A DNA stretch of 64,000 nt from an uncultured Collinsella sp. (GTDB lineage: Bacteria; Actinomycetota; Coriobacteriia; Coriobacteriales; Coriobacteriaceae), in the NCBI GenBank assembly GCA_937995345.1, contig CALKKS010000006.1:22003-86002 (forward strand), read 5' to 3'. The stretch's first letter is position 1, and each line of letters starts with the position of its first letter. The translations under genes were made by a program, and so were the position numbers. Positions 7,950-59,024 of the stretch are shown here, piece after piece. The notes under the pieces were generated by a model. The model saw only the letters and a program-made list of their open reading frames with translations, made no database searches and was not told the DNA's origin.

Positions 7950-7963
7950 CCATCCCTTCATGA

Positions 7964-20091: not shown

Positions 20092-20174
20092 TCGATTCCC
20101 CTTTCTAGCGAATTTCGGCATAAAAAAGCCCGGACGCATGCGCCCGGGCAGGGTGCTTCTTGCTTAGCAGTCGA

Positions 20175-21236: not shown

Positions 21237-21286
21237 GGCTTTTCCTTTCTGTCTTGCACGCGAATCTATACATCGCGTTTCTTTTC

Positions 21287-21330
21287 GATACCAATTATAG
21301 ACATACACCCAACGTGTTTTTAATACCACT
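21287..21330 (-). promoter_or_regulatory. putative promoter/operator of locus A
   Basis: On the minus strand it reads AGTGGTATTAAA-N18-CTATAATTGGTATC. This includes a TATAAT box and two TGGTAT half-sites. The same architecture with the same spacing is found at 24438-24481. Confidence 0.5.
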
Positions 21331-21406
21331 TTGCAATCTGCGCCGATCCTCGGTGAACGGTCGAAATTCTCGGGTGAGTGGTATTAAATTAGAATTAGAT
21401 GTATAT

Positions 21407-22621: not shown

Positions 22622-22712
22622 ACGTACTCCTTCTATACAAAAAGGGGATGGAGGGCATAGGCCTGCTCCATCCCCTTTCCAGGTTGAAACGAAAATCTAT
22701 GCAGTCGGGTCC

Positions 22713-24300: not shown

Positions 24301-24437
24301 AGTTCCTCCCAATAAAGAATCTCGAACCGTCGTCACTCCCGTCGCGCGCGTTGTTGATATCAATTCCGGGAGTTCGATTACACGGCTCGAAGCGTACCTG
24401 GTGTGCTGCTAACACCCATGCCAGGTACAAATGATTT

Positions 24438-24481
24438 GATACCAATTATAGGTATGCAGGTTCTTACTATTTAATACCACT
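24438..24481 (-). promoter_or_regulatory. putative promoter/operator of locus B
   Basis: On the minus strand it reads AGTGGTATTAAA-N18-CTATAATTGGTATC, matching locus A in both sequence and spacing. Confidence 0.5.
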
Positions 24482-24525
24482 CGCTCAGCGGGGTGTTTTT
24501 TACCGTAAACGGCAGACGTATCCCA

Positions 24526-25416: not shown

Positions 25417-25494
25417 GAAGCACCTCCTCGTAATAAAAAACGGCGACCGCAGCGGGTCGCCGTTTCCCTTGGGGGCAGATAGTATGGCCGAGCC

Positions 25495-26328
25495 TTACGC
25501 CAGCACGCCGAAGAACGCGCCGACGATGCCCACGGCCATGGTGGCCACGATCAGCACCATGGGGTTGATCTTCTTGGACAGCAGCCAGTAGTACAGCCAG
25601 AAGGCGATCATGCCGAGCATGCCGGGCATGATGCCGTCCAGGATGTCCTGGAGGGTCTGGGCGTCGTCGCCCGAGCCGATGGCCACCGGGATGCTGGCCC
25701 AGAACATGTCCTTGCACATGGCGCCCACGACCATGACGCCCACGATGCCGACGCAGGTCATGACCTTCTGCATGAGGCCGGTCCTCTGGGCCTCGTCCAG
25801 GAAGCCCACGCCCAGCTCGTAGCCCTTGACGGCGCCCCAGACGCGCAGCGCGAAGCCGGGGACGTTGTAGATGAGCAGGAAGGCGATGGGGCCGAAGGGG
25901 TTGCCGGCCTGGCACAGGCTGATGCCCACCGCGGCGGCGACCACGCGCAGCGTCGACAGGAAGATGGAGTCGCCGATGCCGGACAGCGGGCCCATGAGGG
26001 CGGCCTTGACGTCGTTGACGCTCTCGGGCTCGATCTCGCCGCGGGCGACCTTCTCCTCCATGGCCATCGCGATGCCGCCGACGAACGGGGCGAACTGGAC
26101 GGTGATGTTGAAGAACGCGCAGTGGCGGTGCAGGGCCTCGGCGTAGTCGTCGGGGCGGCCGGCGTAGATCTTCTTGAGCATGTTGGCGACCATCAGGCAG
26201 AAGGCGATGTTCATCTGCTTGTAGTAGGTCCAGGAGAACTCCATGCCCAGGGCGCCGGTGTTGACGGCGCTCCTGACGAGGTCGGAGCGCGTGATCTTGT
26301 TCTCGGGACTAGAAGTCATCGTCCTCAT
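25495..26328 (-). CDS. PTS mannose-family EIID, locus C
   Basis: Same predicted protein as the locus B EIID. Confidence 0.9.
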   Translation of the reverse strand: MRTMTSSPENKITRSDLVRSAVNTGALGMEFSWTYYKQMNIAFCLMVANMLKKIYAGRPDDYAEALHRHCAFFNITVQFAPFVGGIAMAMEEKVARGEIEPESVNDVKAALMGPLSGIGDSIFLSTLRVVAAAVGISLCQAGNPFGPIAFLLIYNVPGFALRVWGAVKGYELGVGFLDEAQRTGLMQKVMTCVGIVGVMVVGAMCKDMFWASIPVAIGSGDDAQTLQDILDGIMPGMLGMIAFWLYYWLLSKKINPMVLIVATMAVGIVGAFFGVLA

Positions 26329-27082
26329 CCCCTTCCGCGGAGAGCTGGGGCTGGGCTCCGCCCAGGCCGAGCAGGTCGAACTTGTCGATGCCGATGATGA
26401 TGGCGATCAGGGCGACGCCCAGGACGGGCACGTTGGCGTAGGAGCACAGCAGGAAGCCCAGGAAGTAGAAGGGCACGAGCTGCTTGGTGAGCACCAGGCG
26501 GCCGAGCATGGCGAAGCCCATGGCAGGCAGGATGTTGGCGGCAACGCCAAAGCCGTCAAGCACGAACTGCGGAATGAAGTCGAGCATGCCCTGGATCGCG
26601 TCAGCGCCCAGATAGAACGACAGCGAGCACAGCAGGAACGCCATGAGGACGCCCGTGGAGCCAATCAGAAAGTGCATCGCGTAGACGCCCTTGAGGTTAC
26701 CCTGGGCAGAGAAGACATCCGCGCGGTCGACCAGGATCGGCAGGGCTGCGTTCAGGATGTTCTTGATGGCGAGGCACAGCGTGGCGATAGGCATAGCGAG
26801 TGCGATGGCAGCCTCGGTGCTCTGGCCCAGCTGGATAGCGAAGGCGCAGGCGAGCACGCCGCCGATCGTCTCATCGGGCGGAACGTAAGCGCCGATGGAG
26901 ATCGAGCCCATGAACAGCAGCTCCAGGCTCGCGCCGATCGCGAGGCCAGACTGCAGGTCCCCCAGCACCAGGCCCACGAGCGGGCACAGGACGATGGGAC
27001 GGAACGCGTAGAGCGTACCGAGCTGGTAGTCGAACTTACCAAATGCGGCGATAAGTCCGATGAGGATTGCTTGGGTAAGCAT
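26309..27082 (-). CDS. PTS mannose-family EIIC, locus C
   Basis: 257 aa beginning MLTQAILIGLIAAFGKFDYQLG... Confidence 0.88.
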   Translation of the reverse strand: MLTQAILIGLIAAFGKFDYQLGTLYAFRPIVLCPLVGLVLGDLQSGLAIGASLELLFMGSISIGAYVPPDETIGGVLACAFAIQLGQSTEAAIALAMPIATLCLAIKNILNAALPILVDRADVFSAQGNLKGVYAMHFLIGSTGVLMAFLLCSLSFYLGADAIQGMLDFIPQFVLDGFGVAANILPAMGFAMLGRLVLTKQLVPFYFLGFLLCSYANVPVLGVALIAIIIGIDKFDLLGLGGAQPQLSAEGDEDDDF

Positions 27083-27142
27083 ACATCCCCCTTTCCATAT
27101 AGGACACTACGAAGAACCCGCAGGCTCTTCGAATTTAAACGC

Positions 27143-27625
27143 CTAGAGCACGCTTGCGCAGTCGACCTTGGGGTCATCGGCCAGAGGACGGATCTCGACC
27201 TCGACGCCACGGTCCAGCATCTCACGCACATCGGCTTCCTCGGCCGCGGTCAGGAAGATCTGGCGAGAGACCTGACGCGCGTCGGGACGCTTCTCGTCCT
27301 TGGGCTTGGTGTTGCCCAGGTTGACCGACTTGATCTGCGGGCAGCCCTCAACAAGCTGCTTTGCCTCGGCGATGGTGGCGACGCAGATAATCATCTTGTA
27401 CTTGTCGGTCACGCCCGAGTTAATGGCCTCGATGGCGTTCGCCATGTCCTTGATGACGAGCTTACAACCGGCAGGCTTGCCCATCTTGAGCGTCGTCTTC
27501 CACACCGGGTCGTTGGCGACCTTATCGCCCACGCAGAAAATGCAGTTGGAGCCAAGGCCCTGAACCCAGGAAACTGCGACCTGGCCATGAAGCAGGCGAT
27601 GGTCAACGCGAAGTAGCTGAATCAT
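27143..27625 (-). CDS. PTS mannose-family EIIB, locus C
   Basis: Begins MIQLLRVDHRLLHGQV, with the ATG at 27625. Confidence 0.88.
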   Translation of the reverse strand: MIQLLRVDHRLLHGQVAVSWVQGLGSNCIFCVGDKVANDPVWKTTLKMGKPAGCKLVIKDMANAIEAINSGVTDKYKMIICVATIAEAKQLVEGCPQIKSVNLGNTKPKDEKRPDARQVSRQIFLTAAEEADVREMLDRGVEVEIRPLADDPKVDCASVL

Positions 27626-27682
27626 AATGTGACCCCCCAAAGGTCTTGCGCTGTCTTACGGCATGTCAATAGGTGCTGCGAA

Positions 27683-28102
27683 TTAGAACTCTTCTTCCTC
27701 GTCGTCATCGACCAAAAGATCGTTGACAAACTTCACACGCGTATCGTCCGCAGCGACGATGGCGCGAATCGTCTCCTTAACCGGTGCCGACTCATCGGAG
27801 AACAACAGCTGAATGAGCAGAGGAAGGTTCATGTTGGTAACGAGGTACGTGCGGGGACGCGTCTGGACGATCTTGGTGAACTCGTTGTTGACGCTGCCGC
27901 CAAAGAGGTCGGTGCAGACGACGACATCATCGTCGGCAGACATGCCCGCCAGCAGTTTTTGGGCCTCCTCGGCCACGTCCATGCGGTCATCGACGAACAT
28001 CGAAAGATCGTGGACGTTGTCGCGAGCACCCGAGAGCAGCTCGACGCTCTCCTTGATGCCGGTAGCGAAGTGCGCATGGCTGGCGATGATGTACTGTCTC
28101 AT
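27683..28102 (-). CDS. PTS mannose-family EIIA, locus C
   Basis: MRQYIIASHAHFATG...TDLFGGS. By eye it is roughly two-thirds identical to the locus A EIIA. Confidence 0.85.
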   Translation of the reverse strand: MRQYIIASHAHFATGIKESVELLSGARDNVHDLSMFVDDRMDVAEEAQKLLAGMSADDDVVVCTDLFGGSVNNEFTKIVQTRPRTYLVTNMNLPLLIQLLFSDESAPVKETIRAIVAADDTRVKFVNDLLVDDDEEEEF

Positions 28103-28148
28103 TCTGTGTTCCTCTCAATAGCCCGGCACGTTCCCGCACCTGTCTTCT

Positions 28149-29210
28149 TTAGTAGTCGAACTGGTGATAGTAGCGACGATACTTGAGGTTGTGTTTGGTG
28201 ACCGTCTCGTAGTAGCGAGCCAGGCGGTCGGTCACGAGCACCGTCAGAATCCACGGGGAGACGATGACGCGGAACTCGTCGTCAAGGCCGGGGATCGCGA
28301 ACTCGGCGGTGTCGATGATGTTGATGTCGGTGTCGCCGGTCACGCCGCGGGTCAGGAACGCGCGGACGCGCTCGTCGAGCTTGCGGTTCTCGTCCTCGCC
28401 CATGAACAGGAACACGGGGACGCCGGGCTCCACGAGCTCGAGGGTGCCGTGGAAGAAGTCGGCCGAGGTGATGTAGCGGGTGCGCTTCCACTGCATCTCC
28501 TCGAGGATGCACATCGAGAACAGGATGGTCTCGCCCCACAGGGCGCCGGAGCCGATGAACATGGTGTAGGGGGCCAGGGCGTACTTCTTGGCGAGCTCCT
28601 CGGCGCGCGGCTCGAAGCGCTTGCGGATATCGAGCATATCCTTCCAGATGTCCTTGGTCTGCTCGATGAACAGATCGAACTTGGGGAAGCAGCCGCGGCG
28701 GTTGAGCAGGCGCAGGCCGAAGCAGTCGGCGAGGTAGTAGCCCTTCTCGCAGCCACCGGAGCCATGGTCAGAAGCCATGGCGACGCAGTTCTCGGCGCCG
28801 ACAGCCTGGCCGATGGGGCCCTCGGGCTTGGTCATGGCGTAGACGCGCACGCCCATGTCCTTCATCTTCTTGACGGCCTCGAGGACCTCGGGGGTGGTGC
28901 CGGACTCGGAGGCGGTGAGCACGACGGACTTGTCGGTCATGCGCTTGTGGCCGGAGACATTCCACTCGGCGGCGTGGATCAGGTAGACCTCCAGGTCGCG
29001 GTCGCCGAACTTGTTCATGAGATACTCGAGCTGCATGAGCTCATCCCAGGTGCCGCCGACGCCCATCAGGAACACGGCGTCGTAGCCCTCGTCGGCGACC
29101 TTGTCGGCGAGCGCGGTCATCTTCTTGCCGGTCTCGTAGAGCGCCTTGCCGTCCTCGAGGTAGCCCTCCTGGTCGAAATTCATGATCTCGATCTTCTCGG
29201 TTTCCTTCAT
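28149..29210 (-). CDS. SIS-domain sugar-phosphate isomerase/deglycase, locus C, copy 1
   Basis: 353-aa paralog of 20175-21236. Its central 871 nt appear identical to that gene. Confidence 0.75.
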   Translation of the reverse strand: MKETEKIEIMNFDQEGYLEDGKALYETGKKMTALADKVADEGYDAVFLMGVGGTWDELMQLEYLMNKFGDRDLEVYLIHAAEWNVSGHKRMTDKSVVLTASESGTTPEVLEAVKKMKDMGVRVYAMTKPEGPIGQAVGAENCVAMASDHGSGGCEKGYYLADCFGLRLLNRRGCFPKFDLFIEQTKDIWKDMLDIRKRFEPRAEELAKKYALAPYTMFIGSGALWGETILFSMCILEEMQWKRTRYITSADFFHGTLELVEPGVPVFLFMGEDENRKLDERVRAFLTRGVTGDTDINIIDTAEFAIPGLDDEFRVIVSPWILTVLVTDRLARYYETVTKHNLKYRRYYHQFDY

Positions 29211-29270
29211 TTGCTTCTCCTTTCTGGGGATGTCTCCACATCCCCCATGCCAACGGGTATCAAAGCCCGC

Positions 29271-30386
29271 TTACATTCCGTAACACTCAGCCGCTTTGGC
29301 CTTAAGCGCATTGACTGACTCTTCGTAGCCCTCTGCCTTGACCTCCATTTGCTTGGAGACGGCATCGAGATACGGGTGTACGTCCCATGACTTCAGACGC
29401 TCGGCAATCATTGCCGCAATCGTCTGGAAGAACACAAGGTTGGGAATTGCGCTGAGCAGCGGAGCCACCTGAGGCACCGCAACCTCGTGAGCCTTACCCC
29501 TGGGATGGGCCGTGAGCAGTACCGTTTTTGTCGTAACGTTCGATAGCGCATCGGCGATATTCGCAAGACGCTCCGACCCCTGCGGATCGTCGACGATAAA
29601 CACTAGGTAGCCTGGGGTTATCTGCATTTCGGGGCCGTGAACAAACTCCTCGCCCTCGTAATGCATCGCTGGAATCTTGATGGTCTCGCTCAGCTTGAGC
29701 GCCGCCTCCTCGGCCACACCATAATTGGGTCCATTGCCGACAACCATTGCCGGCACATGTTCCGATAGCTCAAGCAGATGATCTTGAACATACGACTCGG
29801 CCGTTTTGCACATGGCGGCGTTTGCCCGAATGGCTTCATCCAGATCGTCCAAGCGCTGGACAACCTCATCGGGGTCACATGTTCCCAGAGCCTGTCCGCC
29901 GTAAATGCCAAAGAGAACCAGATATTCGACAAGCGTTTGGACGCCCAGGGTTACAAAGTCCACCGATTCAACGCCCACACCGTAATCAAGCACGATATCG
30001 GCGTGCGCCTTTACGGGGGCCTCAATATTAGACGTCAACGCGACCGCGTCCATGCCCTGCGAGCGCATAAAATCGAGCGCAGCAAGGGTGTTGGTTGAAT
30101 ACCCACTTTGCGAGATGGCGATTGTCAGCGCATCGTGCGGATATGTATGCTCAAAGTCGACAAAGGCCTCGGGCGTCACGACTGACACCTGCATGCACAG
30201 AACATCCTGCAGGTAGTCGCGAACACAATCGGCAGCGTGACGCGAAGAGCCCGAAGCGACAATACGCACCGCACGATACGGTTTAGACGCAAAGATATCA
30301 ACGAGTGGCTTTACGAGCTCGGATGAATGCTCAAGATTCTCCCCCATACGCGTATGAGCAAGCCGAACATAGTCGAGCATTTTCAT
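29271..30386 (-). CDS. SIS-domain protein (AgaS/GlmS-isomerase-like), locus C, copy 2
   Basis: Two SIS-like halves (VASGSSRHAA...; ISQSGYSTNT). The ATG at 30386 follows GAGGTGAGG. Confidence 0.7.
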   Translation of the reverse strand: MKMLDYVRLAHTRMGENLEHSSELVKPLVDIFASKPYRAVRIVASGSSRHAADCVRDYLQDVLCMQVSVVTPEAFVDFEHTYPHDALTIAISQSGYSTNTLAALDFMRSQGMDAVALTSNIEAPVKAHADIVLDYGVGVESVDFVTLGVQTLVEYLVLFGIYGGQALGTCDPDEVVQRLDDLDEAIRANAAMCKTAESYVQDHLLELSEHVPAMVVGNGPNYGVAEEAALKLSETIKIPAMHYEGEEFVHGPEMQITPGYLVFIVDDPQGSERLANIADALSNVTTKTVLLTAHPRGKAHEVAVPQVAPLLSAIPNLVFFQTIAAMIAERLKSWDVHPYLDAVSKQMEVKAEGYEESVNALKAKAAECYGM

Positions 30387-30414
30387 GACCTCACCTCGTA
30401 ACATTTCATGGCCA

Positions 30415-30461
30415 TTTAATACCAATCGATGGTTACAGGTTACGTTCTTTTGATACCTATT
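30415..30461 (-). promoter_or_regulatory. putative operator region of locus C
   Basis: Has TTGGTATTAAA-like and AATAGGTATCAA-like sites on the minus strand. The half-sites are related to those of loci A and B but are arranged differently. Confidence 0.35.
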
Positions 30462-30580
30462 TGCTCACCAAGTTTTTAGCTTCGGCGAACGGTCGATTTT
30501 GAACCTTGTATGGTTGTGTATGCAAGGTGTCGTTTATCCCTAATTCCGCACGGAGCTTAAGCCCTTATGCAATCTGCCGA

Positions 30581-31294
30581 CTAGTACGTATAGGTGTAGC
30601 CACCCGCGTCGCCACGGTTAAAGGACTTAACGTACTCGATGGCCTGACCGCTCGCATCGTAGCTCACGCATTCCAGAAGCAGTGCAAGGTCCCCTTCCTC
30701 GAGTCCAAGCAGGCCGGCATCGCGCGCACCCAGCGCCTCGATGCCAAGTTTCTCCTGTGCCGTAACTGGCTTTCGACCCAGCATCTCATACGTTTCGTAC
30801 AGGCTGAATACCGACACGTCGATATCCTCAATCGCGGGGAACAACAGGCATGGGATAAACGCCATCTCGATTGCAACGGGATCGCCATTGATGCAGTTAA
30901 GACGACGAATGGAGTACAGCAGATCGTCCTCGGCAATTCCAAACAGATCCGCATAATAAGGACCCGCATAGCGCTTTGAGCGCGCGAGGATGCGGACAGA
31001 CGGCTCACCGCCCGAAGCGCGGACCGACTCGCGGAAGCCACCTTGCTTTTCATAGAATTCGGGCACCTTCTGTGCTACAAATGCACCTTTTCCGCGAACA
31101 CGACGAATCTGTCCACGCCGAACGAGCTCGTCAACGGCGCTACGGATGGTCAGCCGCGTCGTGCCAAACTCCTCAGCCAGCTCATTTTCAGACGGAATCA
31201 TCGACCCCGTGGGATACACGCCGCGCTCGATGCGTTCTTCGATATGTCGACGAATACGCATGTAAACAGGGGTATTGTCTACTGTCTCAGCCAT
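30581..31294 (-). CDS. GntR/HutC-family regulator with a UTRA effector domain
   Basis: Contains PSENELAEEFGTTRLTIRSAVDELVRRGQIRRVRGKGAFV, a winged HTH. Confidence 0.85.
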   Translation of the reverse strand: MAETVDNTPVYMRIRRHIEERIERGVYPTGSMIPSENELAEEFGTTRLTIRSAVDELVRRGQIRRVRGKGAFVAQKVPEFYEKQGGFRESVRASGGEPSVRILARSKRYAGPYYADLFGIAEDDLLYSIRRLNCINGDPVAIEMAFIPCLLFPAIEDIDVSVFSLYETYEMLGRKPVTAQEKLGIEALGARDAGLLGLEEGDLALLLECVSYDASGQAIEYVKSFNRGDAGGYTYTY

Positions 31295-32046
31295 TGTTCA
31301 CCCACCAGATTCTCGACGTCGTCCGCCTCGCCGTTATCGGCAAAGCGATATTTCGTGGGCAGGATCACCGATTTACAATGCTCCACAAAACGCATGTCCT
31401 CATCGAACTCAAGCGAGCTCTGATAGAAAACCGGCGTCCCTTCGTCCTGCTGAAGCAGCTCAGCCTCTTCGGCATTAAGACGCGAAATCGAAATATGTTC
31501 ACACCCATGCTCCACACGCACGCCGCCCTCTTGGAGCAAAACATCGTACAGGCTTTCTTGCGTATAGTCGTGCTCGGGAAGTGTTGGGCACAAAGACAGA
31601 TTGACGCGGGCGGTTTCGATTGAAGCCGGCTCGCCCTCGATAAGACGAACGCGCCGCATGCGATACACGGGATCGCCCGGCATCAGACCAAATTTTTTGG
31701 CAGTAGCCTCGTCCGCCTCGATAACCTCGGCAGAAATCAACCGGGAAGACGGGTGCAGGCCAACCGACAGAACGGCATCGGAAAAGTTATACGTTTCTTG
31801 AAAGATATTGAGCGGCTTGGGAGGACACACATACGTACCCGATCCGCGACGGCTCTCGAGTGTTCCACACGAGATGAGCCGCGTGATGGCAGCACGCAAC
31901 GCCGTACGCGAAACACCAATCACTTCGCACAGCACACGCTCAGCCGGCAGGCGATCGCCGCCGGCAAGCTGATGGTGCTGGATATACCAAAGAATTCCCT
32001 CAACAGCACGATCTTTGGGGGGAATTGCATAAGATTCGCCTGCCAT
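31279..32046 (-). CDS. GntR/HutC-family regulator with a UTRA effector domain
   Basis: Contains LPAERVLCEVIGVSRTALRAAITRLISCGTLESRRGSGTYV. It overlaps the downstream GntR gene by 16 nt. Confidence 0.85.
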   Translation of the reverse strand: MAGESYAIPPKDRAVEGILWYIQHHQLAGGDRLPAERVLCEVIGVSRTALRAAITRLISCGTLESRRGSGTYVCPPKPLNIFQETYNFSDAVLSVGLHPSSRLISAEVIEADEATAKKFGLMPGDPVYRMRRVRLIEGEPASIETARVNLSLCPTLPEHDYTQESLYDVLLQEGGVRVEHGCEHISISRLNAEEAELLQQDEGTPVFYQSSLEFDEDMRFVEHCKSVILPTKYRFADNGEADDVENLVGEQWLRQ

Positions 32047-32084
32047 TGCACAGACTCCTCATTCAAAAATGTATGTCACCGGAA

Positions 32085-32573
32085 TTAGGCCAGCCCTCCC
32101 ATGGCATCAAATTCGGCCTTGATCTTCTCGGCGACATTCCGATACGACTTATATAGGCTTGAATCGCGTTTGACTTCGTCGGTCATAACGGGAATCTCTA
32201 ATTTGGAAACCTCGTCTTTTCCCGTCTGAACCGCCACAATAACGCCCATACCAAGACACATATTACGCTTTGCCGCATTTATTTTCGCCGCCTTGGCAGG
32301 ATTTGCCAGAATACGCTGGGCAAATTCCTGTTTCGAGGCCACTTCTTCGGCCTCCGGATCGCCCGCCTCGGCCACTTCGCACTGCAGCACGTCCGCATAG
32401 TCAAAAATCTTCGGCTCGCCGCCGCGCTGATGCACGGCCCACTTGCGGCGCGTGGCATCCTGGTAGATAGCCGGCAAAAACGTAAACCGCGGCGGGTCCA
32501 AAATCGTATCCGTGATGGTAAACACATCGGGATCAAAGGCATCCTGCGGGTTTTTCTTCTTGAACAGCCCCAT
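32085..32573 (-). CDS. hypothetical protein
   Basis: The ATG at 32573 (MGLFKKKNP...) follows GGGAGG. I cannot name a domain with confidence. Confidence 0.5.
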   Translation of the reverse strand: MGLFKKKNPQDAFDPDVFTITDTILDPPRFTFLPAIYQDATRRKWAVHQRGGEPKIFDYADVLQCEVAEAGDPEAEEVASKQEFAQRILANPAKAAKINAAKRNMCLGMGVIVAVQTGKDEVSKLEIPVMTDEVKRDSSLYKSYRNVAEKIKAEFDAMGGLA

Positions 32574-32694
32574 ATCAGCCTCCCGTACTAGCATTAAACA
32601 ACTCAAGCTGAATATAGCACCAATTTCAAGCCGCCGCCCTGCCCTATCGGCACACGGCGTCTATAGCCCGCTTAGCGGAAGAGTTCACGGACGA

Positions 32695-39374: not shown

Positions 39375-39642
39375 ATGTACTCCGTTACATGCTTATTTAT
39401 ATGTCGCTCAACTCAAACATATTAACGCACATCGCGCTTGTCCCAACTATTTCCACGAACGGCTGGAAAAGCATGGTCAGCGGCTCGCGAACACGTCCCA
39501 CACCAGAGGTAAGGATCATGCAAATAACACCCTATGAGTACGTTAACATCAATCCTCTGGTTTTCCTGCCCCGCGTGTTTTGGGCACCCCCAGCTGCGCT
39601 ATACTCCCCTCAAGAAGTGTTCCTGATTCGATAGGAGACTAC

Positions 39643-40704
39643 ATGTCCAAAGCACTCGACCCCAAAGACACCTGCGTCCTCGTTACCGGCGGCGCCGGCT
39701 TTATCGGCTCGCACACCGTCGTTCAGCTGCTCGAGGGCGGCTACCAGGTCGTCGTCGTCGATGACCTCTCCAACTCCAGCGCCGTTGCCATCGACCGCGT
39801 CAAGACCATCGTGGGCGACGAGGCCGCTAAGAACCTCACCTTCTACGAGGCCAACGTGCTCGACCGCGATGCGATGAACAAGATCTTCGATACCCACCAG
39901 ATCGACCGCGTCATCCACTTCGCCGGCTTTAAGGCCGTCGGCGAGTCGGTGAGCAAGCCCGTCGAGTACTATCACAACAACATCGAGAACACCCTGGTGC
40001 TCATCGATATCATGCGCAGCCACGGCTGCAAGTCCATCATCTTCTCGAGCTCCTCGACCGTCTACGGCGATCCGGACAATCCGCCTGTCACCGAAGAGGA
40101 CCCCAAGAAGCCCGCGACCAACCCCTATGGTTGGACCAAGTGGATGATTGAGCAGATCCTCATGGACGTCCATGCCGCCGACCCCGAGTGGGACGTCGTG
40201 CTGCTCCGTTACTTCAATCCCATCGGCGCCCATCCGTCGGGCCTGATTGGCGAGGACCCCAAGGGTATCCCCAACAACCTGGTGCCTTACGTCGCCCAGG
40301 TCGCCGTCGGTAAGCTCGAGGCTGTTCAGGTCTTTGGCAACGATTACCCCACCCCCGACGGCACCGGCGTGCGCGACTACATCCACGTGTGCGACCTGGC
40401 ATCTGGTCACGTGGCCGCCCTCAACTGGATGAACGGCAAGACCGGCGTCGAGATCTTTAACCTGGGCACCGGCACCGGCACCTCGGTACTCGAGGTCGTC
40501 GCTGCTTTCTCCAAGGCCTGCGGCAAGGAGCTGCCCTATGTGATCCGCGAGCGCCGCGCCGGCGACATCGCCGCCAACTGGTGCGATGCCTCCAAGGCCG
40601 AGCGCATGATGGGCTGGAAGGCCCAGTACGATATCGCGGACATGTGCCGCGACAGCTGGAATTGGCAGAGCCACAACCCCAACGGCTTCGCCGACGCCGA
40701 GTAG
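39643..40704 (+). CDS. galE: UDP-glucose 4-epimerase
   Basis: Contains VTGGAGFIGSH...SSS.TVYG...Y..TK. The ATG at 39643 follows AGGAG. Confidence 0.92.
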   Translation: MSKALDPKDTCVLVTGGAGFIGSHTVVQLLEGGYQVVVVDDLSNSSAVAIDRVKTIVGDEAAKNLTFYEANVLDRDAMNKIFDTHQIDRVIHFAGFKAVGESVSKPVEYYHNNIENTLVLIDIMRSHGCKSIIFSSSSTVYGDPDNPPVTEEDPKKPATNPYGWTKWMIEQILMDVHAADPEWDVVLLRYFNPIGAHPSGLIGEDPKGIPNNLVPYVAQVAVGKLEAVQVFGNDYPTPDGTGVRDYIHVCDLASGHVAALNWMNGKTGVEIFNLGTGTGTSVLEVVAAFSKACGKELPYVIRERRAGDIAANWCDASKAERMMGWKAQYDIADMCRDSWNWQSHNPNGFADAE

Positions 40705-40726
40705 CAAAAACCTACATACCGTTCTT

Positions 40727-40760
40727 GCCCCGATCTCACGATGTGAGACCGGGGCTTTTT
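40727..40760 (+). terminator. rho-independent terminator of galE
   Basis: The gccccgatctcac/gtgagaccggggc stem is followed by TTTTT. Confidence 0.8.
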
Positions 40761-40922
40761 CATGACGCGTAACCATTCACCGAAATACTTCCAACTTTTT
40801 TATCTTGCCTGTACATGTTTAAACAACATGTTTTACAATAGGCGTATCGAATCAGAACATCGGAGGCGGACTGCATACCCATCGGCAGGCCGACCCCACA
40901 ACAAGAAGGTTGGAGCGCATTC

Positions 40923-42557: not shown

Positions 42558-44825
<2,268 letters not shown>

Positions 44826-44852
44826 CCCATTCCCCTTACCCATCCTCTTGAA

Positions 44853-44884
44853 AGCGGAGTCGTGGCAACACGGCTCCGCTTTTT
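44853..44884 (+). terminator. rho-independent terminator of glgP
   Basis: The agcggag/ctccgct stem is followed by TTTT. Confidence 0.7.
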
Positions 44885-44923
44885 GTGCCCGCGTGTTGCC
44901 CGTGGCCCACCTCGAGCAAATCG

Positions 44924-45220
44924 TCTCAATCTGTAACACCTACTCGGCCAAAACGGTCCTACCTGTTACAGATCAAGACAAACCGGTCCTTTCCCTAGGA
45001 TTTATCTCAATCTGTAACACCTAACGTCCGAAATCCGCCCTTACTGTTACAGATCGAGACAAATAGATAAGCTGGCTAAAAACAATCTCAATCTGTAACA
45101 GGTAGCTGCCAAAAACAGTCCTTCGTGTTACAGATCGAGATGAAAGGACAGGCAACTCGACGCCGTCTCGATCTGTAACATCTAGGCCCAATTTGGCCCT
45201 CTATCTGTTACAGATCAAGA
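44924..45220. repeat. phased array of eight alternating-orientation 15-bp repeats (four hairpin units of about 81 bp)
   Basis: Copies in one orientation (TCTYRATCTGTAACA) start at 44924, 45005, 45086 and 45166. Copies in the other orientation start at 44964, 45045, 45126 and 45206. The 10-bp core ATCTGTAACA is perfect in all eight. Loops are 25 nt and linkers 25-26 nt. Confidence 0.9.
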
Positions 45221-45251
45221 CAAACTAACAGATGGACAACCCCAACACAAA

Positions 45252-45290
45252 GAAAGGCCCCCCTCTCGCCCAGTGGACGGGAGGGGAGCC
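45252..45290 (-). terminator. terminator of the sugar ABC operon
   Basis: On the minus strand the stem ccctcccg...cgagaggg is followed by a cctttctttgtg T-rich run. Confidence 0.55.
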
Positions 45291-45360
45291 TCATATGTGA
45301 CCGCGGTAAAAGGATGGCAATACCGCAGTCGCCCAAAGGAAGGGCCTGGTTGCACCGGGC

Positions 45361-46560
45361 CTAGATAAGGTTCTTGCCAGAGACCTTATCGAAGAGATGG
45401 GTCGCGTTCTTCTCGAACTTGAACCAGATGGGGTCGCCCGCCTTGAGCGCGCCCTTGGCCTCGAGGTCGACGACGGGGATGATCAGGACGAATTGGCCGT
45501 CGGGAGCGGTCACGTGGACGTGCTCGGTGGAGCCCATGAGCTCGGTCACCTCGACGGTGCCCTGGAGCGCGCCCTCCTCGCCCTTGTCGGCAAGCAGGAT
45601 CTGCTCGGGACGAACGCCGGCCGTGATCTCCTTCACGTCGCCGCCGTCCCAGTTGAGGGCAAGTTGAGCGCAGGTCTCGGGGGCGAGCGCCACGTTCATA
45701 TCCTCGGTCTTGACGGTGAAGCCGTCACCCGAGCGCACCAGCTGGGCATCGAAGAAGTTCATCTGCGGCACGCCGATAAAGCCGGCAACGAAGATGTTCG
45801 CGGGATGGTTGAAGACCTCCTGCGGCGTGGCGATCTGCTGGACAACACCGTCCTTCATGACCACGATACGGTCACCGAGGGTCATAGCCTCGGTCTGATC
45901 GTGGGTAACGTAGATGAAAGTACCCTTGATCTCGTGGCGCAGCTTAATGAGCTCGGCACGCATCTGGTTACGAAGCTTGGCGTCCAGGTTGGACAGCGGC
46001 TCGTCCATCAGGAAGACCTTGGGGTCACGCACGATGGCGCGGCCGATGGCGACACGCTGACGCTGGCCGCCCGAAAGCGCCTTGGGCTTACGGTCGAGGT
46101 ACTCGGTGATACCCAAGATCTCGGCGGCGGAGCGAACCTTGCGGTCGATCTCGTCCTTGGGAACCTTCTTGAGCTCAAGCGTAAACGCCATGTTCTCGTA
46201 CACCGTCATATTGGGGTACAGAGCATAGCTCTGGAAAACCATGGCGATGTCGCGGTCCTTGGGTGCCACGTCGTTGACGCGCTTGCCGTCGATGAGCACG
46301 TCGCCCGAGGTGATGTCCTCTAGGCCGGCGACCATGCGCATCGTCGTGGACTTACCGCAGCCAGACGGGCCAACGAGAACGATGAACTCCTGGTCATGCA
46401 CGGTGAGGTTAAAGTCCTCCACCGCGAGCACGCCGTCCTCGGTAACCTTGAGGTTGTGCTTCTTCTCCTCGGTCTTCTTCTTTTTGCCAAAGAAGCCCTT
46501 CTTTTTGGACTCGTTGTTGGGATACACCTTCTGAACATGTTTGAGAACGATCTCGGCCAT
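45361..46560 (-). CDS. sugar ABC transporter ATP-binding protein (MsmK/UgpC/MalK type) with a Lys-rich N-terminal insertion
   Basis: Contains GPSGCGKST, LSGGQRQR and a C-terminal TOBE-like region. There is an unusual KKKGFFGKKKKTEEKKH insert before Walker A. Confidence 0.9.
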   Translation of the reverse strand: MAEIVLKHVQKVYPNNESKKKGFFGKKKKTEEKKHNLKVTEDGVLAVEDFNLTVHDQEFIVLVGPSGCGKSTTMRMVAGLEDITSGDVLIDGKRVNDVAPKDRDIAMVFQSYALYPNMTVYENMAFTLELKKVPKDEIDRKVRSAAEILGITEYLDRKPKALSGGQRQRVAIGRAIVRDPKVFLMDEPLSNLDAKLRNQMRAELIKLRHEIKGTFIYVTHDQTEAMTLGDRIVVMKDGVVQQIATPQEVFNHPANIFVAGFIGVPQMNFFDAQLVRSGDGFTVKTEDMNVALAPETCAQLALNWDGGDVKEITAGVRPEQILLADKGEEGALQGTVEVTELMGSTEHVHVTAPDGQFVLIIPVVDLEAKGALKAGDPIWFKFEKNATHLFDKVSGKNLI

Positions 46561-54574: not shown

Positions 54575-54712
54575 CGGGGGTTATAAAACCTGTCAGCAGC
54601 GTATTTGGGTACAACTTGCTACACTGTTGAGTGCATGTTTATGCATCCCTTTGCGTTGTCTATCCGGCACACGCTCAAATAGTACGAATGGTACGCCGAA
54701 AGGGGTTCGTTC

Positions 54713-55618
54713 ATGGAACCTATTACAACGGGCATGCAGGGAGCAGCCGTCGAGGACGTCCAGTCCCGCCTTCTGCAGCTCGGCTATACAATCGATGGCA
54801 CCGAGGTTGCCGACAAGCGCTTTGGCACCACCACCGAACAGGCTGTTGGCACCTTTAGGCTCGATAGCGGCCTTGCCGCTGGCTGTGCCGTCGATATCCC
54901 CTGCTGGAGCGCCTTGGTAGACGCCTCGTATAAACTGGGCGACCGCACGCTCTATCTGCGCATGCCCAATTTCCATGGCTCCGATGTGCAGGCCTTGCAG
55001 AAGGCGCTCAACGTTTTGGGCTTTGCCTGCGGCGAGGACGACGGCTACTTTGGCCCGCACACCGAGGCGGCCCTTCAGCAGTTCCAAGAAAACGTCGGTC
55101 TGTTTGCCGACGGTATGGCTTTCCAGGATACCTACGCCTACATCAACCGCCTGCACCACGTGTGGGAGGGTAAACCTTCGGTGACCGAGGCTGAATCGCG
55201 CATCGGCTTTGCCCGCGCGGCCAATGTACTCGAGCGTTTCCAGATTGCCGTCATCGGCGAGGACCCCATCGCGCGCAGCGTAGCATCGCGTATGTGGAAC
55301 ATCGCCACGGCGACGACCGACAACAGCGGTATGATGCTTTGCGACTCCGAGGTTCCGACCGACGTTGACCTGGTGCTCGAGATCGCAAGCGACGAGCTGC
55401 CCGCCGACGCCGCTCCGCGCGCCACGATTGCCCTCGCCGAGTGCCACAACCTGGCCCAGCGCATCCGCACCGCCAATGTCGCCGCACAGCAAAAGCCGGC
55501 ACGCATCCGCATTGAGCTCACCGGCATGACGCGCTACAACGGAACCTTCACCGCAAGCGACGCGCAAACACTCGCCGTACGCCTGCTCGATGGCGTTTGC
55601 GATGCCCTCGCAGATTAG
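54713..55618 (+). CDS. protein with two peptidoglycan-binding (PG_binding_1-like) repeats
   Basis: Contains GAAVEDVQSRLLQLGY...FGTTTEQAVGTF and GSDVQALQKALNVLGF...FGPHTEAALQQFQ. The C-terminal half is unassigned. Confidence 0.6.
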   Translation: MEPITTGMQGAAVEDVQSRLLQLGYTIDGTEVADKRFGTTTEQAVGTFRLDSGLAAGCAVDIPCWSALVDASYKLGDRTLYLRMPNFHGSDVQALQKALNVLGFACGEDDGYFGPHTEAALQQFQENVGLFADGMAFQDTYAYINRLHHVWEGKPSVTEAESRIGFARAANVLERFQIAVIGEDPIARSVASRMWNIATATTDNSGMMLCDSEVPTDVDLVLEIASDELPADAAPRATIALAECHNLAQRIRTANVAAQQKPARIRIELTGMTRYNGTFTASDAQTLAVRLLDGVCDALAD

Positions 55619-55655
55619 GTAAACTAGACGAGTTGCTTTTGTGCAACGCACATAC

Positions 55656-55730
55656 TGGGACGTAGTTCAACGGTAGAACTCCGGTTTTTGGTGCCGGCTG
55701 TTGGGGGTTCGAATCCCTCCGTCCCAGCCA
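55656..55730 (+). tRNA. tRNA-Gln (anticodon UUG), CCA encoded
   Basis: Folded by hand. The acceptor TGGGACG pairs with CGTCCCA and the D stem GTTC with GAAC. The anticodon stem is CCGGT/GCCGG with loop TTTTGGT. The T arm is GGGGG-TTCGAAT-CCCTC. Discriminator G is followed by CCA. Confidence 0.9.
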
Positions 55731-55739
55731 TTAAAACTG

Positions 55740-55771
55740 AGCGCCCTGAGCCCATAACGGCCCAGGGCGCT
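55740..55771 (+). terminator. hairpin terminator after tRNA-Gln
   Basis: The agcgccctg/cagggcgct stem is followed by TTCTTG. Confidence 0.6.
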
Positions 55772-55901
55772 TTCTTGTGGGCAAGCGGAGGAATTCGAAC
55801 CCGCAAGGGTGCGGAGCTGAGGAAACGCGAAGCGTTTGCCAGCGCAGCACGCAAGGAGCGAAGCGACGCAGCGGGCCGCGGCCGCCGAAAAGGCGGACGC
55901 A

Positions 55902-55917
55902 GAATCCCTCCGTCCCA
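55902..55917 (+). repeat. 16-nt direct repeat of the tRNA-Gln 3-prime end (att-like)
   Basis: gaatccctccgtccca is identical to tRNA positions 56-71 (55711-55726). Confidence 0.85.
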
Positions 55918-55927
55918 CATCAGCCAA

Positions 55928-56503
55928 AGTAGATTTTTGGGACATGCCTAGAAATCTACCTATCAGCCCAGCTCCGCATGGCAAAGGAATAGCCCCTTTG
56001 TCACATTCGGTATCGTTCTCAAATCGCCATCAGCATTTTTCGAGTTATGCGGTCACGCTGCCGACCCACCACGCAATGCCACCGAAATAGCTTGATCGCT
56101 CTTGTCATAATCTGAGCGTATTCAAGCCTTCTTGAACAGAAGCTTCACAGAGTCAAACGCAGCAAAGGAATCAGCTGTCCCCGAAACGGCATCTTCGGAC
56201 TGCAAAAGGCCCCAGAATACCGCCTAACTCGATTTTTGCAGGTGAGAAGGAAATGCAATCGATTCATACGCCTAAATCGGCATCCCCCATGCGACATTAG
56301 ATTCCAGGAGGTCATTTCCATGCAGAAATGACCTCAATAACGCCATGTCTCGTTCCAATCTGGGCCTCTTTGAGCAAGCAGAGGAATTCGAATCAGCCAG
56401 ACAACACAACTTCTCGTCCTGCACGAGAAGTTTCAGCCATAACTTCTCGTTCTGCACCAGAAGTTGAAGGTAGGTTTTCAGGCATGTCCCAAAAATCTAC
56501 CTC
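55928..56503. repeat. non-coding segment of about 576 bp bounded by imperfect inverted repeats of about 37 bp (family E)
   Basis: 55928-55964 gtagatttttgggacatgcctagaaatctacct matches the reverse complement of 56467-56503 with a few mismatches. The interior holds tandem hairpins aacttctcg...cgagaagtt at 56408-56432 and 56441-56465. Confidence 0.7.
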
Positions 56504-56634
56504 CAAAAGACAGGTGCCCCAAGCCCATTAGGACCAAGAGCGCCTTACATCTAGAACATATCAGCCTAGTTCCGAAAAGCGAGCCGCCATCAACAAAGCG
56601 CCGTGTGGCCCCGACGGGCCGGGCATTAAGTTTG

Positions 56635-56664
56635 TCGCGAGTTCCGCACGCAAAGAAGGCCACT
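56635..56664 (+). repeat. family A element, truncated copy 4 (left half of the core only)
   Basis: tcgcgagttccgcacgcaaagaaggccact is identical to the copy 1 core up to the inner stem, where the match ends. Confidence 0.8.
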
Positions 56665-56831
56665 AACCTCGATGTTTTGGACGTGACAGCGAGAGGGGTC
56701 CTGGTATGGCAAGGTGACGTGAAACAAGGCGGCGCTGACCTTCTGGTCGCGCCGCCGAAGTTGAACGTCAGATTGCCGTGCCAGGGACCCTCGCAGCGTC
56801 GAGAGGGCCGCCGTTCGGTAGAACGGCGGAA

Positions 56832-59024
56832 CTAATTATTAAGCATACGGTCGAAGCTTCCCGAGTCGCCATCCCGGTAGTCGGCGGTCATCAGAATCTC
56901 CTGCGGAATTCGTCCGCCCTCACGCAGCACGTTGCGGAACTGCACACGCGTAACCACGGGCAGATCCTTAATCGTCGCCGCCAGGTTCTGCGGCACGCCC
57001 TGGTTGGCAGCCGCGGGCTCGCACTCGCCGCCGGCCTTCATGCGACGCTTGTGCTCGGCGAGCATGGCGCGATACATACCGGCATGTAGACGGATCTCGA
57101 CCACATTAGCATTGCGAGCCTGCTCGACAATACGCGCGCCCTCTCGGTCGATGTCACCCACGTAGTAGACGTAGTTAAAGCGGTAGCCGATCTCGGCCAG
57201 ATAATCATCCAGCGCATGAGAGACACTCGCCTTGCACCCACCGCCAAAGATCACGCCGCCCACCTTAGTGCCAAAAAGCTTGGCATGTTTGCGGCCACGC
57301 AGGAGCTTGACGATTTCGTCGTAGGCATCCAGGTTCTCGACCATAATGAACGGCTTGTCGGCGCCCAGCGTAAAGAAGCCCGTAAAGTGCACCGGACGGT
57401 TGGGGGCGACCTTGATCGCCTGCATGCTGATGCCCTTTTCGGTCATACGCCTGATCAGGCGCTCGCCATGCTTGCCGTCAAAAGCTTTTTCGTCATTGAA
57501 GATCTGGTAGGCGCGCTGGCGGCGCGAGGCAACCGGAGTATCGGCACCGCGGTTTTGCTCGATCCAAGCCTGGATAATCGCGATTTCCTCGGCAATTTTG
57601 CGATTGGACATCTCGTTGTGCGGGGCGCGCTGTGGTGCTTTCTTGCCGTCCTTGCCCTCGACCTTAACGATTTGGGTCTGCTGCTCCTTGATCTTGGAGA
57701 GCGCCGTAGGCGTGGGGACAACCTTGAGCAGCTGCCTGCCCAGCACGCGGGCCAGGGCAAATGCCGAGACCTCGCCGTGGACGGTCGGCTCAGACCGCTG
57801 GGCAGCATTATCAGCTGCGGCAGGCTCAGCCTGTGCATGGGGCTTACGCTTGGAATCTGCCCGGGTATTGCGTTCCTGCTTGGGCGCAGACGAGCGTTTT
57901 TGCGGACGATCAGACTTAGTCTCCTTCGCCGGCTGACGCTTGACCTGATCCACCGGAGTCTCGGCCTTCTCATCTCTGTTTTGCGTCGCCGCCTTCTCGG
58001 CCGCGGCCTCGGCATTTGAGCTACGACCGCCGCGGTGACGGCGGCGACGGGGCTTGCTTGAGGCGCTCTCCCCCGCCTGCTTATCAGCGGACTGTTGAGC
58101 CTTGGCCTCGGTGTCAGCCGCAGGCTGCGACTCGGAAGGTCGCTGCTCGCGAGTCGCTGGCTCAACGGTTTTCTCGGTTTGTTCGATCTTCTCGGCCTGA
58201 GCGGTCGGAGCTGGCTCGCCCTTCTCCTGGCGCTTTACGGGATACGCGCGTCCCGCAAACCCACGGCCGGGACGACACGAACCCGGAGCCTTCTTGGCAG
58301 ACTCCTCTACATCGTCTGCAACCTCGAAAGGCTCATCAACCTCATGCGCGACATCCTGCTGCGCAGCCTTAAAGTGAGCACCGCGACGACGCTTGGGCTC
58401 TTGGGCCTCCACGGGCTTTTGATCCTTCGCGGGCTTCTGCGACTCGGCAGCAACCTCGGTCTCAACAGCCTCGGTATCAAGTTCATCCTTTTGAGCAACG
58501 GCGCGACGGAAGCGCTCCTGCTGAGCGCGGCGTTGTGCATCGCGCTTGCCGCCCCCGCCAAAGCCGCCGCGAGCCGCCTTGGCGGTAAAAGCGCGAACGA
58601 CGTTCTCATCGAGCAGCTCATCGGTATCGATATGCTCACGCGGGGCAACTTCTTCCGCAGCAGGCACCTCAACGGAATCCTCGACAGGCTGCTCCTGGGC
58701 ATTATGAATCTCGGCATTGATGGTATAGAACGCAGGGCGGCCGTTAATGCCGCTACCCTCGATCTTGGTCACAATCTTTGCCGCGATAAGCTCATCGCGC
58801 ATCGCCTTGGTGTCGCATTCCTTATCGACGGAGCGGAAGATCTGCGCCAGGGCGCTCGACTTAATCTTGAGTGCCTTGCGGCAGAGCAGGTCGTAGGCAA
58901 CCAGCTTGGCCCGCTCGGCAGAAAGCGAAGTCTGGCCGCTCAGACGCTCAGCCAGGGCATCGACATTGTTTTGGTTATCGGAATATACCGTCTTGGCCAC
59001 GGGGCCCCTTTCATATGTACACAT
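56832..59024 (-). CDS. orphan JetD-C/DUF2220-like Toprim-domain protein with an N-terminal globular domain and about 350 aa of charged low-complexity sequence
   Basis: The C-terminal ~250 aa contain FIMVENLDAYD (Toprim Glu), FGGG and YYVGDIDREGARI (DxD), then HAGMYRAMLAEH. This is the motif order of the JetD C-terminal domain. The middle is K/R/E/A/Q-rich. An alternative start is GTG 59000, after AAAGGGG. Confidence 0.5.
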   Translation of the reverse strand: MCTYERGPVAKTVYSDNQNNVDALAERLSGQTSLSAERAKLVAYDLLCRKALKIKSSALAQIFRSVDKECDTKAMRDELIAAKIVTKIEGSGINGRPAFYTINAEIHNAQEQPVEDSVEVPAAEEVAPREHIDTDELLDENVVRAFTAKAARGGFGGGGKRDAQRRAQQERFRRAVAQKDELDTEAVETEVAAESQKPAKDQKPVEAQEPKRRRGAHFKAAQQDVAHEVDEPFEVADDVEESAKKAPGSCRPGRGFAGRAYPVKRQEKGEPAPTAQAEKIEQTEKTVEPATREQRPSESQPAADTEAKAQQSADKQAGESASSKPRRRRHRGGRSSNAEAAAEKAATQNRDEKAETPVDQVKRQPAKETKSDRPQKRSSAPKQERNTRADSKRKPHAQAEPAAADNAAQRSEPTVHGEVSAFALARVLGRQLLKVVPTPTALSKIKEQQTQIVKVEGKDGKKAPQRAPHNEMSNRKIAEEIAIIQAWIEQNRGADTPVASRRQRAYQIFNDEKAFDGKHGERLIRRMTEKGISMQAIKVAPNRPVHFTGFFTLGADKPFIMVENLDAYDEIVKLLRGRKHAKLFGTKVGGVIFGGGCKASVSHALDDYLAEIGYRFNYVYYVGDIDREGARIVEQARNANVVEIRLHAGMYRAMLAEHKRRMKAGGECEPAAANQGVPQNLAATIKDLPVVTRVQFRNVLREGGRIPQEILMTADYRDGDSGSFDRMLNN

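Follow-up and report, generated by a model that had tools for sequence, protein, structure and literature searches.

The 64,000-nucleotide stretch of uncultured Collinsella DNA analyzed here (positions 22,003 to 86,002 of contig CALKKS010000006.1, referred to as the window) carries at 44923–45221 an array of four dyad-symmetric units, without a strand of its own, between the convergent genes for a glycogen/maltodextrin phosphorylase (glgP) and for the MalK-like ATPase of a sugar ABC transporter. Each unit consists of a forward (F) arm, a loop and an inverted (R) arm, and the same unit recurs between genes across the genus. We propose with moderate confidence that the arms are phased sites for a putative DNA-binding protein at gene boundaries and that the arrays constitute a REPIN/BIME-like family of Collinsella repeats. 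The proposal draws on the anatomy of the arrays, on what is conserved in them, on the absence of both pairing selection and strand bias, on a helical periodicity, on copy-number dynamics and dispersal, and on the absence of a linked gene; from these we infer protein binding, bending and a physiological role. The family is apparently specific to Collinsella and undescribed, with no description found in the searchable literature, and a literature search on the motif and on Collinsella repeats returned nothing relevant.

In the mechanism that we favor, each arm would be read as double-stranded DNA by a trans-encoded putative protein, probably a dimer, and neighboring complexes would stand in helical register, at eight turns per unit, to give a phased, bent or wrapped nucleoprotein array. 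Located for the most part shortly downstream of genes and enriched between convergent ones, such arrays might act as boundary or topological elements, whether as insulators, as roadblocks or in the handling of supercoils, and a comparable role has been proposed for BIMEs. Whole units would be gained and lost by slippage or unequal recombination between arms. Units would also have been copied between loci in the past, the family having probably begun as a small non-autonomous mobile element, and the descendants of this ancestor would now be largely fixed and vertically inherited. The initial annotation of the window, a model's reading of the letters, had mentioned a protein-binding array among its comparisons, and this is the idea that the tests below favor.

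Anatomy of the array and distribution of the family

The four units of the window array, delimited by reading the sequence, by a repeat finder and by reference to orthologous arrays, start at 44923, 45004, 45085 and 45165, giving periods of 81, 81 and 80 bp. Each is made up of a 16-nt arm of the form R-TCT-Y-R-ATCTGTAACA, a loop of exactly 25 nt in all four cases and the inverted arm, followed by a linker of 23–24 nt. Unit 1 (44923–44979) has its F arm, GTCTCAATCTGTAACA, at 44923–44938, its loop at 44939–44963 and its R arm at 44964–44979; in unit 2 (45004–45060) the same elements occupy 45004–45019, 45020–45044 and 45045–45060, in unit 3 (45085–45141) 45085–45100, 45101–45125 and 45126–45141, and in unit 4 (45165–45221) 45165–45180, 45181–45205 and 45206–45221. 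Linker 1 (44980–45003, 24 nt) is variable with A/T-rich ends (AAAC...ATTT), and it is followed by linkers 2 (45061–45084, 24 nt) and 3 (45142–45164, 23 nt); if the arms are taken as 15 rather than 16 nt, the three linkers measure 26, 26 and 25 nt. The four units, the 80–81-bp period, the 25-nt loop and the linkers of the initial annotation were thus all recovered, as was its invariant 10-bp core: all eight arms contain ATCTGTAACA without a mismatch, and the 64-kb window has no further copy. When one mismatch was allowed, the core matched at nine places in the window against 1.23 expected, a number that none of 100 shuffles reached. Tandem Repeats Finder did not report the array, because the arms alone resemble each other.

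To place the array in a wider context, we scanned for the exact pattern ATCTGTAACA-N20-30-TGTTACAGAT, taking one genome per species, and obtained at least 120 tiles, which among the matches listed all belonged to Collinsella or to gut bins. The unit is present at no fewer than 22 distinct intergenic loci in about 100 Collinsella genomes. Tolerant arm detection in the fetched loci gave 776 arms in 149 arrays, and the 144 arrays with at least two arms fell into 22 orthology groups when grouped by flanking sequence. The unit is therefore multi-locus rather than a duplication confined to one place, which is what the initial annotation had named as the alternative to be checked by searching the genome and its relatives. 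In the 914 kb of fetched DNA we counted 614 copies of the core, every one of them inside an intergenic array. On a 900-kb C. aerofaciens replicon (NZ_OY725717.1) the pattern matches at 21 places, or about one array per 43 kb, from which we extrapolate some 50–60 arrays and about 150 arms per genome; this extrapolated number of arms is at the low end for REP abundance. The replicon, 899,693 bp in length, is labeled "plasmid 6" of C. aerofaciens TSDC17.2-1.1 in PLSDB/RefSeq, but carries recA, recX, ftsK, lexA, scpA/scpB, der, miaA/miaB and rny, and is evidently a piece of chromosome or an assembly artifact and not a plasmid.

The geometry of the family is rigid. In 348 of 351 units the F and R arms start 40 bp apart, corresponding to a 25-nt loop, and the distance from an R arm to the next F arm is 39–41 bp, with linkers of 24–26 nt family-wide, so that arms recur every 40–41 bp in alternating orientation and modules every 80–81 bp. 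Arrays open with an F arm and close with an R arm, and they nearly always hold whole F-R units: 13 arrays have one unit, 43 have two, 39 three, 18 four, two five and one eight. The consensus is a two-fold-symmetric module of about 63 bp, WWW / R-TCT-Y-R-ATCTGTAACA / nnTAG / N6 / A-or-T tract / N6 / CTAnn / inverted arm / WWW, in which the N6 segments of the loop are G+C-rich and the central tract is AAA or TTT, with G or C almost never found there. The weak common pattern that the initial annotation saw in the window loops corresponds to this family-wide nnTAG-N6-WWW-N6-CTAnn. The variable segments amount to about 6 + 6 nt and about 17 nt. Loop polarity is mild once the units are oriented by their central tract, and within arrays the orientation of the central A-tract is random (76 the same, 61 opposite).

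One class of loops stands apart. The loop of unit 1 in the window, ..AC-TCGGC-AAAA-CGGTCC.., belongs to a recurrent subtype seen at seven or more other loci. The subtype as a whole, ..AAC-TCGGC-AAAA-TCGG.CC-.AGA, in which AAC or TAC replaces TAG, is found at a minimum of seven non-orthologous loci (window 44939–44963 and, for example, L055:7114, L116:7749, L096:4034, L039:4464, L095:2358, L023:1655 and L014:7715, L numbers denoting fetched loci). It is far better conserved than other loops, and may be a recently copied subfamily or a second specificity.

A phage collection gave no match to the array. Ten viral contigs do contain arrays; they have a Collinsella-like GC content and look like prophages or host fragments. 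Three low-GC (0.36–0.38) IMG/VR contigs (L122:1961–2003, L127:1569–1611 and L125:690–738) each have a single ATCTGTAACA...TGTTACAGAT pair, with a loop that measures 23 nt in two cases and about 29 nt in the other, and these are probably chance matches or an unrelated element.

Conservation, phasing and placement of the units

To measure divergence between orthologous units, one arm was used as the anchor and orthology was set on the 5′ linker, which leaves the other arm free of ascertainment bias. Divergence was 0.049 at the fixed arm positions, 0.083 in the central A/T tract, 0.15 in TAG/CTA, 0.21 at the variable positions of the loop, 0.25 at the three tolerant arm positions and 0.36 in the 3′ linker. 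Constraint is on the arms, the A/T tract and the spacing, and the remainder drifts. The initial annotation had taken the arms to be the selected part of the unit, in agreement with this gradient (0.05 in arms, 0.21 in loops, 0.36 in linkers).

The variation that the arms do tolerate is informative as to how they might be recognized. At arm positions −6 and −1 only purines occur, and at the partner positions only pyrimidines, and the two arms vary independently, as the counts for pair −1/45 illustrate (AT 67, GC 66, AC 57, GT 57). Among 109 non-redundant units, 81.5% of cells are paired compared with 83.4% in shuffles, and the covariation score is 0.117 where shuffles average 0.137, and 498 of 500 of them reach or exceed the observed value. 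TAG and CTA also vary independently of each other. The word "loop" in the initial annotation implies a hairpin, but covariation is absent and the hairpin is not under selection. Purine-only tolerance, independent for each arm, is instead the signature of direct read-out of each arm sequence, and a protein on duplex DNA is its simplest explanation.

The unit has more conserved structure than the initial annotation saw, in the form of TAG/CTA, the central and flanking A/T tracts and a periodicity in A/T content. In the DNA outside the arms, the dominant Fourier component of A/T content is at 10.0 bp, with a power of 27.7, the runner-up reaching 12.5 (permutation p = 0.0002). The conserved A/T steps, namely TAG, the central tract, CTA and the flanking tracts, all lie on a 10.0-bp grid, of which one unit spans eight periods. 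We infer that the DNA of an array would bend consistently toward one side or wrap around the surface of a protein, and that consecutive units would share a rotational setting.

Arrays are intergenic, lying about 55–70 bp past stop codons and 130–150 bp ahead of start codons. In the tiles they are found in 39 of 88 convergent, 44 of 248 tandem and 23 of 106 divergent intergenic regions, counts that are not phylogenetically independent. Among the 125 gene ends oriented toward an array, 62 carry a terminator of their own ahead of it. The neighbors are diverse and include GH1, LacI, PTS, GntR, ABC transporters, Nramp, GltB, CoaX, an rluA-type pseudouridine synthase and ThiD; when neighbors were annotated with Pfam, NCBIfam or PADLOC for each of the 22 orthology groups, no recurrent transposase, RAYT, Nop/Tas, Cas or other gene came to light.

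At the window locus, glgP on the plus strand (42558–44825; PF00343, E = 6e−247) is followed by an intrinsic terminator at 44851–44887 (stem 44851–44882, 14-nt arms, 4-nt loop and a T-run; ΔG −23.1 kcal/mol), which ends 36 nt upstream of the array and is context outside the repeat. On the minus strand, the MalK-like ABC ATPase (45361–46560; ABC_tran, OB_MalK and TOBE_2), the last gene of the sugar ABC transporter operon, ends in an intrinsic terminator at about 45255–45291 (ΔG −30.7 kcal/mol), likewise context, whose T-rich run points toward the array. The glgP terminator is kept in all six orthologues of the locus, and in 6/6 orthologues the genes on both sides end in terminators of their own ahead of the array. 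The initial annotation had placed the array outside the flanking transcription units, and its position between these two terminators accords with that.

Several points weigh against a protein-binding array. Gene conversion among copies, in place of purifying selection on every site, could partly explain the conservation of arms at orthologous loci, and the statistics pool orthologous loci of related species, which are not independent observations. A few conserved A/T positions, and not the variable DNA, account for most of the 10-bp periodicity. The gene calls in the fetched loci are heuristic (longest open reading frames with third-position GC above 0.6). Finally, transcripts of the arrays are predicted to fold into highly stable hairpins (−16 to −32 kcal/mol per unit), and secondary effects at the RNA level, such as 3′-end protection or termination, are possible.

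Array dynamics, known repeat systems and alternative explanations

The number of units at a given locus varies across species, from three to four at the window locus (orthologues L005, L028, L064, L089 and L119) and from one to eight at others. Polymorphism of array length, which the initial annotation had proposed to look for between strains, is thus observed between species at orthologous loci. The window locus is also mosaic: the order is U1-U2-U3-U4 in the window, A-U1′-U3-U4 in L089 and U1′-A′-U2′ in L005. The identity of neighboring segments is bimodal, being either near-identical or unrelated, with breakpoints at the arms, and tandem duplications are seen in L013 and L047. The mosaics, the bimodal identity and the duplications are all explained if the 16-bp arms are where slippage or unequal exchange takes place. 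Nearly identical loops turn up at different loci about nine times as often as expected (124 pairs against ~14), and in 142 of 152 such pairs the linkers on either side are not shared; at some time in the past, therefore, F-loop-R units were copied from one locus to another. Two other ideas were considered and rejected. An invertible loop switch finds no example, as not one of the 124 loops that were replaced matches its counterpart in reverse complement, and the arms are not the termini of full-length insertion sequences, as no isolated arms bracket a gene and 614/614 cores are inside arrays. What look like solitary arms, with two mismatches, are chance resemblances within coding sequence.

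The main alternative is that the family is purely selfish. On that explanation, which we consider unlikely, the unit is REPIN-like non-autonomous mobile DNA that folds as a single-stranded hairpin and is moved in trans by a RAYT-like HUH or other transposase, so that the arms are kept for mobilization and not for use by the host. [quoted passage not shown] BIMEs are regularly spaced REPs in alternating orientation that are polymorphic in length, and in Stenotrophomonas the segments between REPs are mutually unrelated (PMC2817692, 2010); regular alternating repeats, head-to-tail tandem modules, marked length polymorphism, extragenic location and inter-repeat segments that can be unrelated recur in our arrays. 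The ninefold excess of similar loops between separate loci, where homology stops at the arms, is also as expected of mobile units, and as single-stranded DNA the unit folds well (−8.6 to −12.2 kcal/mol, z = −3.8 to −5.7).

The differences are in the features that define those systems. The 16-mer is not within a palindromic REP: the minimum free energy of one arm as single-stranded DNA, taken alone or with its conserved flanks, is 0 kcal/mol, which does not improve on shuffles, and only the F-R pair folds. Start-to-start distances are 40 bp here and 71 bp in REPINs. Preserved palindromic pairing is reported for both REPINs and BIMEs (PMC3116915; PMC2817692), and the imperfect palindromes of BIMEs are held by complementary mutations, whereas the arms of the Collinsella units change independently and show no compensatory change. 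Units clustered in one array are not near-identical copies, since their loops and linkers are mostly unrelated, and where inter-REP lengths in BIMEs are variable or of few types, the loop here is fixed at 25 bp and has its own TAG / A-tract / CTA signature. The loci are overwhelmingly orthologous between species, with arms conserved in place, which argues for little recent movement. BIMEs are accompanied by a RAYT gene that the same REPs border, but the neighbors of the 22 loci include neither a RAYT nor another transposase. In 1.09 Mb of fetched, array-rich Collinsella DNA there is no homologue of E. coli RayT (best E = 0.5), although a very distant Y1 could be missed, and the 900-kb C. aerofaciens replicon is absent from all 36 records that match this protein, a search in which no complete genome was covered.

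The initial annotation's comparison with enterobacterial BIME-2 clusters therefore stands for the regular, alternating arms and falls for membership of the REP/RAYT class, the arm not being a palindrome and no RAYT being found in about 2 Mb of Collinsella DNA. It had also named a known REP/BIME-type family with a cognate RAYT as a finding that would refute its reading, and no such match was obtained. The resemblance to REPINs and BIMEs is strong in layout and population behavior, and membership fails on the defining molecular features. BIMEs have themselves been proposed to bind proteins (IHF, gyrase and Pol I) and to act in termination or chromosome organization (PMC2817692).

A function at the level of RNA is, in our view, very unlikely. 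The arrays would then be transcribed as hairpins to give small RNAs, perhaps guide-like ones of the TIGR type, or would stabilize or terminate the 3′ ends of upstream operons. Within the window the idea looks attractive, as all six arm mismatches are G·U on the minus strand, giving perfect 16-bp RNA stems, and the predicted hairpins reach −24 to −32 kcal/mol per unit on that strand against −16 to −25 kcal/mol on the plus strand; arrays moreover begin soon after stop codons, and roughly half of the facing gene ends have no recognizable terminator of their own. Across the family, however, G·T and A·C are equally common, and relative to co-directional flanking genes the G·U form is sense in 72 cases and antisense in 83 (p = 0.42). 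The orthologue L089 of the window locus breaks the 6/6 pattern. Mismatch types within a unit are concordant in 77 cases and discordant in 22, which is explained by linkage of variants within one arm (GG 243, AA 137, GA 124, AG 93). We therefore rejected the strand-specific RNA hairpin suggested by the window, the family-wide bias being absent. The lack of covariation, the random polarity of loops within arrays and the position of the window array beyond both terminators also count against an RNA role. Intrinsic termination by the units was likewise rejected, as the flanking A/T tracts have no preferred orientation and the commonest arrangement, T-rich on the left and A-rich on the right, is the reverse of a terminator.

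Searches against Rfam gave the same picture. At gathering thresholds the window yields a single tRNA, and with E values of up to 10 the array region has only chance sub-threshold hairpin matches. The motif Collinsella-1 (RF01700), a non-coding motif from C. aerofaciens and from metagenomes of the human gut (Weinberg et al. 2010, PMC2864571), was rejected as the identity of the repeat: it has a different sequence and a three-stem structure, and was not among the Rfam matches at E up to 10.

Stem-loop TIGR arrays deserve a closer comparison, as they too are tandem hairpin-like units with variable internal segments and linkers and occur in gut Actinobacteria, for example with the TasA of Bifidobacterium longum (10.64898/2026.09.09.750476). 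TIGR arrays are directional and expressed as RNA, and a tas (Nop-domain) gene either adjoins or contains them (Faure et al. 2025, PMC12045711; Xu et al. 2026 preprint, 10.64898/2026.09.09.750476). In the stem-loop type the stems diverge within an array and covary, and C/D boxes are directly repeated around two spacers of ~9 nt (PMC12045711; 10.64898/2026.09.09.750476). In the Collinsella arrays, by contrast, the stems are invariant across the genus and do not covary, the 25-nt loop is palindromic (TAG-N6-WWW-N6-CTA), the variable segments are ~6 nt rather than ~9 nt, the polarity of units is random and the neighbors of the 22 groups include no tas gene, although a distant Tas encoded in trans is possible. 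On account of the invariant stems, the palindromic loop, the lack of direction and the absence of a neighboring tas, we rejected a stem-loop TIGR array.

A CRISPR-like adaptive array, or a set of operators for a local transcription factor acting on nearby sugar genes, has regularly interspaced repeats and many sugar-utilization neighbors (GH1, LacI, PTS, GntR, ABC transporters) to recommend it but is extremely improbable, given that the arms alternate, that the short variable segments are inherited at orthologous loci, that there are no cas genes nearby, that unrelated genes (Nramp, gltB, coaX, rluA-type) are flanked as well, that the sites are at 3′ ends or between convergent genes and not at promoters, and that ~50 arrays of up to 16 arms per genome are unlike an operator set. 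CRISPR repeats are direct, ~23–50 nt long and of one orientation, with unique foreign spacers of similar size between them and usually with cas genes, as opposed to 16-nt alternating arms and variable parts of ~6 + 6 and ~17 nt, and the CRISPR resemblance mentioned in the initial annotation is superficial.

Two further kinds of tandem array have partial likeness to the family. The MIRU-VNTR loci of Mycobacterium are intergenic tandem arrays with 40–100-bp units at a few dozen loci, with copy numbers that are polymorphic between strains, but their units are direct repeats, alike throughout, with neither alternating inverted arms nor conservation restricted to arms. The centromere-like sopC site of the F plasmid consists of 43-bp units, each with an inverted protein-binding repeat, on which protein assembles cooperatively. 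It and iteron arrays resemble the Collinsella arrays in being phased tandem units that hold an inverted repeat; they differ in being single loci on a replicon, next to partition genes and with units alike throughout, in place of ~50 chromosomal loci with no linked gene.

Neighboring genes and implications for Collinsella

Arrays also often occur in pairs. In the fetched loci there are 23 pairs of arrays 0.9–3.6 kb apart, placed around one or two genes (for example L027 2520–2734 with 5020–5234, and L050 6222–6356 with 7765–7979), which is far commoner than chance at one array per 43 kb. The enclosed genes encode Nramp, an AAA_16 ATPase, an FHA protein together with a 724-aa protein, and two small proteins without a family match; the two arrays around Nramp have a linker sequence in common.

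One of the enclosed genes was considered as a possible partner of the arrays. An open reading frame (ORF) of ~357–365 aa (L013:5004–6098) has arrays on both sides (4785–5000 and 6108–6243) at gaps of 4–10 bp, so close that its promoter would have to fall within an array. It represents one orthologous locus in at least nine species, including L041, L054, L056, L072, L076 and L088. The product has no significant Pfam or NCBIfam match and a weak C-terminal one to DUF559 (Vsr-like nuclease, E = 0.024), and by eye it looks like an N-terminal helix-turn-helix fused to a PD-(D/E)xK domain. Its placement is similar to that of RAYT genes among REPs, but nothing else ties it to the arrays; Nramp, the AAA ATPase and others are equally flanked, and we rejected it as the cognate gene, a special role being without support.

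Two other genes near arrays are of local occurrence. Beside the arrays of orthology group 14, L069:5099–6481 encodes a 460-aa protein with an excisionase-type helix-turn-helix (HTH_17, TIGR01764) that matches the PADLOC candidate defense family PDC-M03A (E = 1e−15); it is found at this locus only and is probably incidental to the arrays. An IS3-type transposase OrfA (HTH_Tnp_1, HTH_28; L026:4529–4933) is located 2.6 kb from an array at two loci of one orthology group. REP-type repeats are targets of insertion sequences, but no insertion within an array was seen at these loci.

Elsewhere in the window, a 388-aa ORF at 39610–40776 on the minus strand, upstream of malQ, has no Pfam family and a faint TraC-like match in NCBIfam (E = 0.019). 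Third-position GC is low at 20160–32606 and 54593–56835 (0.39–0.61, compared with ~0.75–0.85 elsewhere), and most long ORFs in these two stretches have no Pfam match. The second adjoins a tRNA gene at 55656–55727. Both may be horizontally acquired islands, in which the ORF calls may be wrong.

For the family as a whole, a more ambitious version of the protein-binding proposal can be stated tentatively, possible though rather unlikely as it is. The arrays would be the DNA half of an undescribed, genus-wide system of chromosome architecture, in which sequence-specific, arm-binding dimers would wrap or bend ~80 bp per unit, or eight turns with an A/T step every 10.0 bp, into positioned nucleosome-like particles at ~50 gene boundaries per genome, there insulating transcription units or managing supercoiling, above all between convergent operons, and the whole would be the domesticated descendant of a mobile element without a RAYT.

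Collinsella is a prevalent genus in the human intestine, and the searchable literature yielded no description of non-coding features of its genomes. With invariant 16-bp arms, a rigid geometry and ~50 loci, the family is tractable for experiment. Its length-polymorphic arrays are possible markers for strain typing, and the arrays can mislead programs that search for hairpins, terminators or CRISPR and TIGR arrays. The family also bears on the old question of whether REPs and BIMEs are kept for the host or for their own spread. In Collinsella, the arms are conserved at orthologous loci across many species, with neither selection for pairing nor a detectable RAYT, and use at the level of the host is therefore favored.

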